From NCBI RefSeq assembly GCF_003334785.1, contig NZ_QOWV01000006.1: a stretch of DNA of 64,000 bases; one strand, given 5' to 3'. This DNA is from Escherichia coli (lineage in GTDB: Bacteria > Pseudomonadota > Gammaproteobacteria > Enterobacterales > Enterobacteriaceae). Below, one piece after another: positions 14,821 through 54,864 of the stretch. Both the position numbers and the translations under genes were made by a program. Each line of letters begins with the position of its first letter. Positions within the stretch are counted from its first letter, which is position 1. The notes below the pieces were generated by a model. It worked only from the letters and a program-made list of their open reading frames with translations, was not told where the DNA came from and ran no database searches.

Positions 14821-15036
14821 TTATTGGACATAGTGCCAGACGGACTTCGGTACCTGGCCGAGGTCAAACAAACGCCCGCCAGAAACCAGCTCTGCGCGAC
14901 GGTGATCGGCAGCACGATACATATTGATCAGTTCCTGATCGTCCGTCAGGGTGTAATTAAGATGGTCGTAGAGTTTTTCCAGACTTTCGAGTGAACTGAT
15001 TTTGCGAAATTTTAATAAGTAGTCCTGAACAGTCAT
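14821..15036 (-). CDS. cnu: Hha-family nucleoid-associated protein Cnu (YdgT)
   Basis: 71-aa ORF, recognised Cnu. Confidence 0.9.
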
Positions 15037-15308
15037 AAAAGGTCCATAAAATAATTAATACCAAAGGGGTAGGTATTATTAGTGATGATAAAATTTCACC
15101 AAAAGTGAACGCTTGTGTTATTACAATAATAAGAATGCGCTGATGGCAAATATTCAGGGATGAAAAACTGCTCTGAAAAGAGTAACGCGCTTTACTATCC
15201 CTGACAATCACCAACAACATCGAACAAGATAATAAATTCCTGGTTTAATATCCGACAAGTGAAAACATGCACCCGGACGGGCAGCATGTCGCTCCACAAG
15301 TGCAGAGC

Positions 15309-15434
15309 TTACTTGTGTTGTACCGAAGCACTCTGTTCAGGTGGCTGATAGTTGTCAATGTGACTCGCCACGCCAAGAAGAATGACTGAAACGACAAGAA
15401 CGATCCAACCTGTTAATTCAATAAGACGATTCAT
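15309..15434 (-). CDS. blr: Small membrane protein Blr (41 aa)
   Basis: MNRLIELTGWIVLVVSVILLGVASHIDNYQPPEQSASVQHK, embedded in the 66-aa track ORF 15309-15509. Confidence 0.75.
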   Translation of the reverse strand: MNRLIELTGWIVLVVSVILLGVASHIDNYQPPEQSASVQHK

Positions 15435-15676
15435 TACAGCCCACATCTCTCTTGATTGATCCATTAACTTCAGGGGGTAAATGTTACTTAGCAATAATAG
15501 CTCCAGCAAGATTTTTACTGAGGTTTTTGCGATATTTAGCTTTTGTCGTTGGAAAATTCGCTATTTTTTTGACTTAAGTTAAACAACATCCCTTATTGCT
15601 GGCAGGTTATTAAACTGTTGAGCGTGGGTAAAGGATAGTGTCAAATAGCCATCATACTTCAATGAGAGGCAATGAC

Positions 15677-16717
15677 ATGAGCGACAACATCCGTGTTGGG
15701 TTGATTGGGTATGGTTATGCGAGCAAAACCTTCCATGCGCCCCTGATTGCGGGCACGCCCGGGCTGGAACTGGCGGTAATCTCCAGCAGTGATGAAACAA
15801 AAGTAAAAGCCGACTGGCCAACGGTTACGGTTGTCTCTGAGCCGAAGCATCTGTTTAACGATCCCAACATAGACCTGATTGTCATTCCTACACCCAACGA
15901 TACCCATTTACCGTTAGCCAAAGCGGCGCTTGAGGCGGGTAAACATGTGGTCGTTGATAAACCCTTTACCGTGACACTGTCACAAGCGCGAGAGCTGGAT
16001 GCGCTGGCAAAAAGCCTGGGGCGTGTGCTGTCTGTATTCCATAACCGTCGCTGGGATAGCGATTTCTTGACGCTAAAAGGTTTACTCGCGGAAGGCGTGC
16101 TGGGTGAAGTTGCTTACTTTGAGTCTCATTTTGACCGCTTCCGTCCGCAGGTGCGCGATCGTTGGCGTGAACAGGGCGGCCCAGGCAGCGGTATCTGGTA
16201 CGATTTAGCACCACATCTTCTTGATCAGGCCATTACGCTTTTTGGTTTACCGGTCAGCATGACGGTAGATTTGGCACAGTTACGGCCCGGAGCGCAGTCG
16301 ACCGATTATTTCCACGCCATCTTGTCCTATCCACAGCGGCGAGTCATTTTACACGGTACCATGCTGGCAGCCGCTGAGTCAGCACGGTATATCGTGCATG
16401 GATCCCGAGGCAGTTATGTGAAATATGGCCTCGATCCACAGGAAGAACGTCTGAAAAATGGCGAGCGTCTACCGCAGGAAGACTGGGGCTACGATATGCG
16501 TGATGGCGTACTTACCCGCGTGGAAGGTGAGGAACGTGTCGAAGAAACGCTGTTGACGGTGCCTGGGAATTATCCGGCTTACTATGCGGCTATTCGTGAT
16601 GCGTTAAATGGCGATGGTGAAAATCCGGTTCCGGCAAGCCAGGCAATCCAGGTAATGGAGTTGATTGAGCTGGGCATCGAATCCGCCAAACATCGCGCGA
16701 CTTTGTGCCTTGCATGA
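15677..16717 (+). CDS. ydgJ: Putative Gfo/Idh/MocA-family oxidoreductase
   Basis: N-terminal Rossmann motif GLIGYGYAS; 346 aa from MSDNIRVG. Confidence 0.9.
   Translation: MSDNIRVGLIGYGYASKTFHAPLIAGTPGLELAVISSSDETKVKADWPTVTVVSEPKHLFNDPNIDLIVIPTPNDTHLPLAKAALEAGKHVVVDKPFTVTLSQARELDALAKSLGRVLSVFHNRRWDSDFLTLKGLLAEGVLGEVAYFESHFDRFRPQVRDRWREQGGPGSGIWYDLAPHLLDQAITLFGLPVSMTVDLAQLRPGAQSTDYFHAILSYPQRRVILHGTMLAAAESARYIVHGSRGSYVKYGLDPQEERLKNGERLPQEDWGYDMRDGVLTRVEGEERVEETLLTVPGNYPAYYAAIRDALNGDGENPVPASQAIQVMELIELGIESAKHRATLCLA
15971..15983. other. matS-consensus site (GTGACACTGTCAC) inside ydgJ
   Basis: Exact match to the MatP-binding consensus GTGAC-RNY-GTCAC; the window lies in the Ter region (TerB and tus are present). 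Confidence 0.55.
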
Positions 16718-16750
16718 AAAATGGATGGTGCATTTGCACCATCCATTTTG

Positions 16751-17752
16751 TTACTTCGCGGCGACTTTTTCTCGCAGTGCGCGTTTTTCCTCAGCGCTGA
16801 GGAAAGCCATTTCCAGACCATTAATCTGTGCCTGGCGGATTTGCTCGCGGGATAACCCAGCAGCTGGCGCGGCAACGGTATATTCGTGAATGATATCCAC
16901 TCCCTGTACGCCGGGATCGTCAGTGTTAATGCTGGCACGAATGCCATGCTCAAGGAACGTTTTCAGCGGATGTGCAGCCAGCTCTGCTACGGTGCTGGTC
17001 TGAATATTGGAGGTCAGACAGGATTCAATACCAATTTGTTGCTCGGCGAGAAAATCCATCAGCGCCCGATCTTCAATGGCTTTTACGCCATGTCCAATAC
17101 GCTCCGCACCCAGTTCACGAATCGCCTGCCAGATGCTTTCCGGCCCGGCAGCTTCGCCTGCATGGACGGTAATATGCCAGCCCGCATCACGCGCGCGGTT
17201 GAAGTGAGAAAGGAACAGACTTCCCGGGAAACCAAGTTCATCACCGGCTAAATCAAGTGCGGTAATCTGGTCACGGTGGGCTAAAAAGGCCTCCAGCTCT
17301 TGCTGACAGGCGGCTTCGCCGAAGGTCCGGCTCATAATGCCGATAAGCTTCGCCTGCACACCAAAGGTGCGGCAACCTTCACGTACGCCATCGATCACCG
17401 CTTCGACAACACCCGCTACAGGCAGCTGATGTGCCATTGCCATGTAGCCTGGTGAAAAACGCAGCTCGACATAGTGCAGGCCGTGACGGGCTGCATCTTC
17501 AATGTTTTCAAATGCCACGCGGCGACAGGCATCAAGAGAGGCGAGAACTTTAACGCCCCAGTCAAGTTTGGTCAGAAAGCTCACCAGATCGGGTTCGTTG
17601 GCAATGACCTGAACGTGGGGAATCAGTGTTTCCAGGGATTGTGCAGGAAGCGAGATATTATACTGGCGGCCAAGTTCAAGAATGGTCTGGGGACGAATGT
17701 TGCCATCAAGGTGGCGATGGATATCAGTTAATGGCAGGGTGGTATCAATCAT
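16751..17752 (-). CDS. add: Adenosine deaminase
   Basis: 333-aa ORF, recognised Add. Confidence 0.95.
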
Positions 17753-54670: not shown

Positions 54671-54864
54671 AGTGCGCAGATCCGGATAGATGTGTAGATG
54701 ATGCATGAGCAGAAATGGGCAATGAAACACGGGCGACTATTTTGCGGCAAAAGAGGCCAGCCGCAAAAGCAGTGCGTGCTTTAAGAGATAAAAAAACGTG
54801 ACACTGTAACCTATTATTGCCGGATTGCGCGTAATCGTCACCATCCGGCAATATTACGGTGATC

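Follow-up and report, generated by a model that had tools for sequence, protein, structure and literature searches.

A consensus matS site within ydgJ in the Escherichia coli terminus region and its conservation at synonymous codons among Enterobacteriaceae

The matS sites of the Escherichia coli Ter macrodomain are short palindromes recognised by a dimer of MatP, and have been listed as 23 sites (Mercier 2008) and subsequently as 28 sites in a MatP ChIP-seq map (Seba 2024). The matS consensus is GTGACRNYGTCAC, as quoted in PMC6907758, and the published extent of the sites is 'from 1135 to 1914' kb in an older coordinate system. The ChIP signal of the SMC complex MukBEF at matS has been found to depend upon MatP, which displaces MukBEF from ter (MatP-matS ChIP-seq). 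Seba 2024 reported that inhibition of MukBEF rises with both the number and the density of matS, and that MatP joins Ter to the septum via ZapB. Among the sites first listed, at least two (matS5 and matS21) were reported to be unbound in vivo, and a match to the consensus alone is therefore no guarantee of occupancy. Short protein-binding sites that are gathered in one region of the chromosome and control SMC action are likewise represented by XDS/XerD of Bacillus subtilis and by parS/ParB, the analogy between matS and XDS having been drawn by Seba 2024. Proteins, motifs and bacteria differ between these systems: XDS serves the unloading of SMC by XerD, and parS is a site of SMC loading close to the origin, while matS and MatP remove MukBEF near the terminus.

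The site described here lies in a 64-kb stretch of E. coli DNA, referred to as the window, which is inverted in orientation relative to the chromosome of MG1655. Direct read-out of the window at 15971-15983 gives GTGACACTGTCAC, a 13-bp palindrome without assigned strand that corresponds to a MatP dimer site and fits GTGACRNYGTCAC exactly, as claimed in a first-pass annotation made from the letters of the sequence. That annotation had also described the site as the only instance in the window. When both strands were searched for GTGACRNYGTCAC, this was upheld by one strict match in the 64 kb, besides which there are one-mismatch variants at 40837 and 54798. Dinucleotide-preserving shuffles of the window gave an expectation of 0.02 matches, with any match at all occurring in 2 of 100 shuffles.

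The palindrome is contained within the coding sequence of ydgJ (15677..16717, + strand), a putative oxidoreductase gene identified from the list of open reading frames (ORFs) and from the RefSeq annotation of the identical E. coli/MG1655 sequence. It is in frame at codons 99-103, where GTG ACA CTG TCA C(AA) specifies V99, T100, L101, S102 and Q103, and its placement inside the gene had been correctly recognised in the annotation. The longest ORF covering ydgJ extends from 15638 to 16717 (+), with the annotated ATG at 15677; the ORF delimited mechanically begins with a GTG codon 13 codons upstream of this ATG (window 15638-15676). The neighbours of ydgJ in the annotation of complete E. coli genomes are add, blr and ydgT/cnu. 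Of 5426 such genomes, 5425 contain the 2-kb region encompassing the gene (window 15000-17000). The gene itself is genomic context only and stands outside the MatP system.

TerB, a Tus-binding replication-terminator site, is located at 35737..35759 on the - strand of the window and was identified as an exact copy of the 23-mer AATAAGTATGTTGTAACTAAAGT, for which 0 occurrences are expected by chance, that also matches the Ter core pattern. Its counterpart in MG1655 is directly upstream of tus, as expected, and the exact 23-mer at this position confirms that the window covers the replication fork-trap region. TerB is separated from the ydgJ matS by 19.8 kb, in agreement with the distance of about 20 kb given in the first-pass annotation.

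Properties used to recognise a matS include a 13-bp palindrome fitting the consensus, which was found here, a location in the matS-bearing part of the terminus (near dif and the Ter sites, extending in K-12 over about 1135-1914 kb) and a host that encodes MatP. Binding by MatP in vivo or in vitro is a further property, which is indirectly supported here by the published ChIP-seq counts and segment lengths (see below). The equivalent of the ydgJ matS in MG1655 is 1,704,002-1,704,014 (NC_000913.3; about 1,702.0 kb in the older U00096.2 numbering), which falls within the published interval and supports the Ter macrodomain setting that had been proposed for it. In MG1655, b0956 carries the annotation matP ('macrodomain Ter protein'), so that MatP is encoded at the level of E. 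coli K-12 MG1655; in the window's own strain matP lies outside the 64 kb. Selective maintenance of the sequence over and above what the overlapping gene requires is no formal criterion of matS, but is expected of a functional site and was observed among orthologues of ydgJ (see below). The outcome of these checks shows that a motif of chromosome architecture can be recognised by a first-stage reader from sequence alone.

The region from 1.13 to 1.96 Mb of MG1655 was fetched as tiles and scanned for exact matches to the matS consensus. This yielded 20 sites, ranging from 1,136,538 to 1,916,864, and both outermost sites agree with the published limits of matS. The ydgJ site is the sixteenth of the 20. 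Comparison of coordinates with the MG1655 annotation placed 15 of the 20 exact sites within genes, and an intragenic position is thus normal for matS. Besides ydgJ, the host genes are flgI, holB, trpE, abgB, paaH, ydcK, ydcO, ydcV, narW, lsrR, ydfI, ydhQ, ynjD and letA. The seventeenth site, at 1,745,151 inside ydhQ, has flanks that match the published oligonucleotide for matS19 of Mercier 2008, AAAGTGACACTGTCACCTT. It is the next exact site, 41 kb from the ydgJ matS, and has the same core, GTGACACTGTCAC; both are intragenic, although in different host genes, and the flanks are acc/aag at the ydgJ site as opposed to aaa/ctt at matS19. The ydgJ site was considered as the source of the published oligonucleotide and rejected, since the core is shared but the flanks are those of the separate site at 1,745,151. 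While matS19 of Mercier 2008 was used for binding of MatP in vitro, no individual study of the ydgJ copy was found in the literature, and a search for publications naming matS together with ydgJ returned only a paper in which ydgJ serves as a locus marker, in a region of high FtsK activity. With the seventeenth exact site identified as the published matS19, the original list of 23 would contain two non-exact sites ahead of it. By this count, the ydgJ site is most probably matS18 of the list of Mercier 2008.

Numbering in the 28-site map was approached from the published site counts and segment lengths. Seba 2024 describes segments of 378 kb with 11 matS, 437 kb with 17 matS, 427 kb with 13 matS and 374 kb with 15 matS, together with spans of 253 kb for matS20-28, 209 kb for matS22-28 and 136 kb for matS25-28, the last being divided by gaps of 13, 65 and 58 kb. 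When matS28 was placed at 1,974,386 (GTTACGTTGTAAC) and matS20 at 1,721,917 (GTTACAGGGTCAC) as anchors, eleven of the distances published by Seba 2024, between sites or across segments, were reproduced to ≤1 kb. The counts of Seba 2024 require five sites between matS14 (1,600,472) and matS20, and exactly five candidates with no more than one mismatch are found there, at 1,619,966, 1,630,324, 1,665,175, 1,679,136 and 1,704,002. As the number required equals the number available, we infer that the ydgJ site, at the last of these positions, corresponds to matS19 in the 28-site ChIP-seq map.

The five sites needed between matS14 and matS20 include, in addition to the ydgJ site, both of the one-mismatch variants present in the window. 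These candidate non-consensus matS are GTGACGGTGTAAC at 40837..40849 (no strand assigned; MG1655 1,679,136, inside ydgH) and GTGACACTGTAAC at 54798..54810 (no strand assigned; MG1655 1,665,175, in the spacer between dmsD and clcB), and each carries a GTAAC half-site. Judging from the published site counts, both variants are probably bound by MatP as well, the former probably being matS18 and the latter matS17 of the 28-site list. With these identities, the window would hold three MatP sites rather than one. The best-fit matS28 and matS20 that served as anchors are two-mismatch variants. Among presumed non-consensus matS, a change of G to T at position 3, or its mirror image at position 11, is recurrent, and this pattern suggests that GTTAC may be tolerated as a half-site.

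The matS in ydgJ is a genuine and, by this reconstruction, already known site of the E. coli terminus. It shares organism, 13-bp consensus and chromosomal region with the Ter macrodomain matS of Mercier 2008 and Seba 2024, and there is no difference in kind between them.

Conservation of the site was investigated in 80 orthologues of ydgJ obtained in one scan of species-representative genomes. These have amino acid identities of 85-99% and represent more than 20 enterobacterial genera, including Escherichia, Citrobacter, Salmonella, Enterobacter, Kosakonia, Buttiauxella, Franconibacter, Atlantibacter, Pluralibacter and Trabulsiella. In a codon alignment, an exact consensus was present at the same ydgJ codons in 70 of the 80, a figure that does not represent 70 independent observations since the orthologues are phylogenetically related. 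The sequences concerned are GTGACACTGTCAC (43 orthologues), GTGACGTTGTCAC (26) and GTGACATTGTCAC (1). Within the site, these 70 orthologues vary only at the degenerate R and N positions, with A or G at position 6 and C or T at position 7, all of which are allowed by the consensus. Four-fold degenerate sites of the orthologues differed from those of E. coli ydgJ at a median of 60%, which indicates that synonymous sites are near saturation. From the codon usage of the same genes, the probability of the consensus given the peptide was calculated as 0.0096, equivalent to 0.77 of 80 orthologues. When the ten fixed positions of the consensus were applied as a mask along the gene, the matS was the most conserved of 1,025 ydgJ windows, scoring 70, where the second-ranked window scored 58 and the median was 4.

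The same pattern was evident in individual codons, which were counted over 81 aligned sequences (the 80 orthologues and the reference). V99 is encoded by GTG in 94% of the 81 sequences and T100 by a purine-ending codon (ACA or ACG) in all 81, the common threonine codon being ACC, as at T98. Leucine is retained at position 101 in 80 sequences, and 78 of these use CTG or TTG. S102 is encoded by TCA in 89% of the 81 sequences, whereas TCA accounts for 5.5% of serine codons elsewhere in the gene. Every synonymous option is used at the flanking codons F97, T98, Q103, A104 and R105, and this contrast within a single alignment controls for the relatedness of the orthologues. A search of the literature for synonymous constraint at matS found nothing relevant.

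Within E. coli, the 69 bp surrounding the site are identical in 3,694 of 5,423 genomes. Polymorphism affecting the matS itself was considered and found no support, in that three variants sampled from the approximately 1,700 variant genomes all differ outside the 13-mer only. The consensus has been lost in 10 of the 80 orthologues (L031, L034, L036, L038, L040, L046, L047, L053, L063 and L079), which belong mostly to Enterobacter and Lelliottia. Loss occurred through synonymous changes in these ten species, with an additional leucine to proline substitution in L063. No replacement consensus was found within 1.5 kb either side of ydgJ in the ten losing species, and the ydgJ matS is therefore dispensable in some lineages.

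Since the site is wholly coding, the palindrome might have arisen as a chance by-product of encoding V-T-L-S-Q and have no role at the level of DNA. The peptide FTVTLSQAR is kept in 79 of the 80 orthologues, and the first and second codon positions are consequently fixed by the protein; the window shuffles, 2 in 100 of which also contained one match, are a further point in favour of chance. Codon usage, however, predicts the consensus in only about 1% of orthologues, as opposed to the 70 of 80 in which it was found. The four third-codon positions show exactly the constraint required by the consensus, whereas the codons on either side are free to vary, and the 20 exact sites of MG1655 are clustered in the Ter region with limits equal to the published range. 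On the synonymous-site analysis a pure coding accident can be excluded, and any reading of this type is extremely improbable. The inverted repeat could alternatively act in the ydgJ mRNA, as a small hairpin affecting translation or stability, and the minimum-free-energy fold does contain a stem of 5 bp with a loop of 3 nt. The folded 61-nt region was nevertheless no better than its shuffles (z = +0.96), 175 of 200 shuffles being at least as stable, and no compensatory changes in the stem were observed among the orthologues. Species with an altered stem (e.g. GTCACGCTGTCTC) break the pairing instead of restoring it. An invariant stem with a variable loop is what recognition of two GTGAC half-sites by a protein predicts. 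The hairpin was rejected on the z value and the complete lack of compensatory changes, leaving it with next to no likelihood.

A DNA-level role might also be fulfilled by some other DNA-binding factor for which the palindrome is a conserved target, with MatP absent from the ydgJ copy in the manner reported for matS5 and matS21. Reports that some consensus or near-consensus sites are unbound in vivo lend this a degree of plausibility. Against it, the pattern of constraint (five fixed positions, R, N, Y and five fixed positions) mirrors the MatP consensus at every position, and the ydgJ site is required by the published ChIP-seq counts. We know of no other factor with a matS-like motif, and consider an alternative ligand very unlikely. 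The 13-bp palindrome in ydgJ is very probably a functional matS and, as such, a member of the set of 23-28 terminus sites that the MatP dimer recognises in E. coli, and on the same grounds we infer that the ydgJ copy is occupied by MatP.

As a functional matS, the palindrome in ydgJ would be bound by a MatP dimer, and the bound protein would displace or unload MukBEF from Ter, while the C-terminus of MatP would tie Ter to the division septum through ZapB. The latter connection would keep the terminus at mid-cell, so that sister termini part late. The ydgJ site would be expected to act additively with neighbouring matS, given that the effect upon MukBEF is graded with the number and density of sites, and the same gradation implies that a single site such as this is one redundant element of the array. 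Within the gene, the matS would constrain the choice of synonymous codons for V99, T100, L101 and S102. The value of the site as a discovery is limited, as maps of the MatP/matS system in E. coli K-12 date back to 2008 and were later redrawn by ChIP-seq. It does provide a case of the textbook type, in which a chromosome-organiser site dictates synonymous codons inside an unrelated gene: a rare serine codon (TCA), valine GTG and purine-ending threonine codons are held across the Enterobacteriaceae. This is of relevance to the recoding or codon-optimising of genes in the terminus region.

The conservation might also be taken to mean that selection on the ydgJ matS is unusually strong and position-specific, such that individual matS are not interchangeable and placement near TerB and tus matters in itself. 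This reading draws upon the location of ydgJ in a part of the chromosome where FtsK is highly active and segregation is late. We regard it as unlikely, and conservation at the level ordinary for matS is likelier than special selection upon this site.

Two of the orthologous loci have individual features. In Yokenella regensburgei, a second exact matS is located approximately 50 bp past the stop codon of ydgJ, an arrangement seen in that species only. A ydgJ of the Enterobacteriaceae type, 88% identical to E. coli YdgJ and with an intact matS site, was found on a 555-kb contig (CACSKA010000003.1) labelled Chryseobacterium sp. 18061. The label is that of a species of Bacteroidota, and the assembly is probably contaminated or mislabelled.
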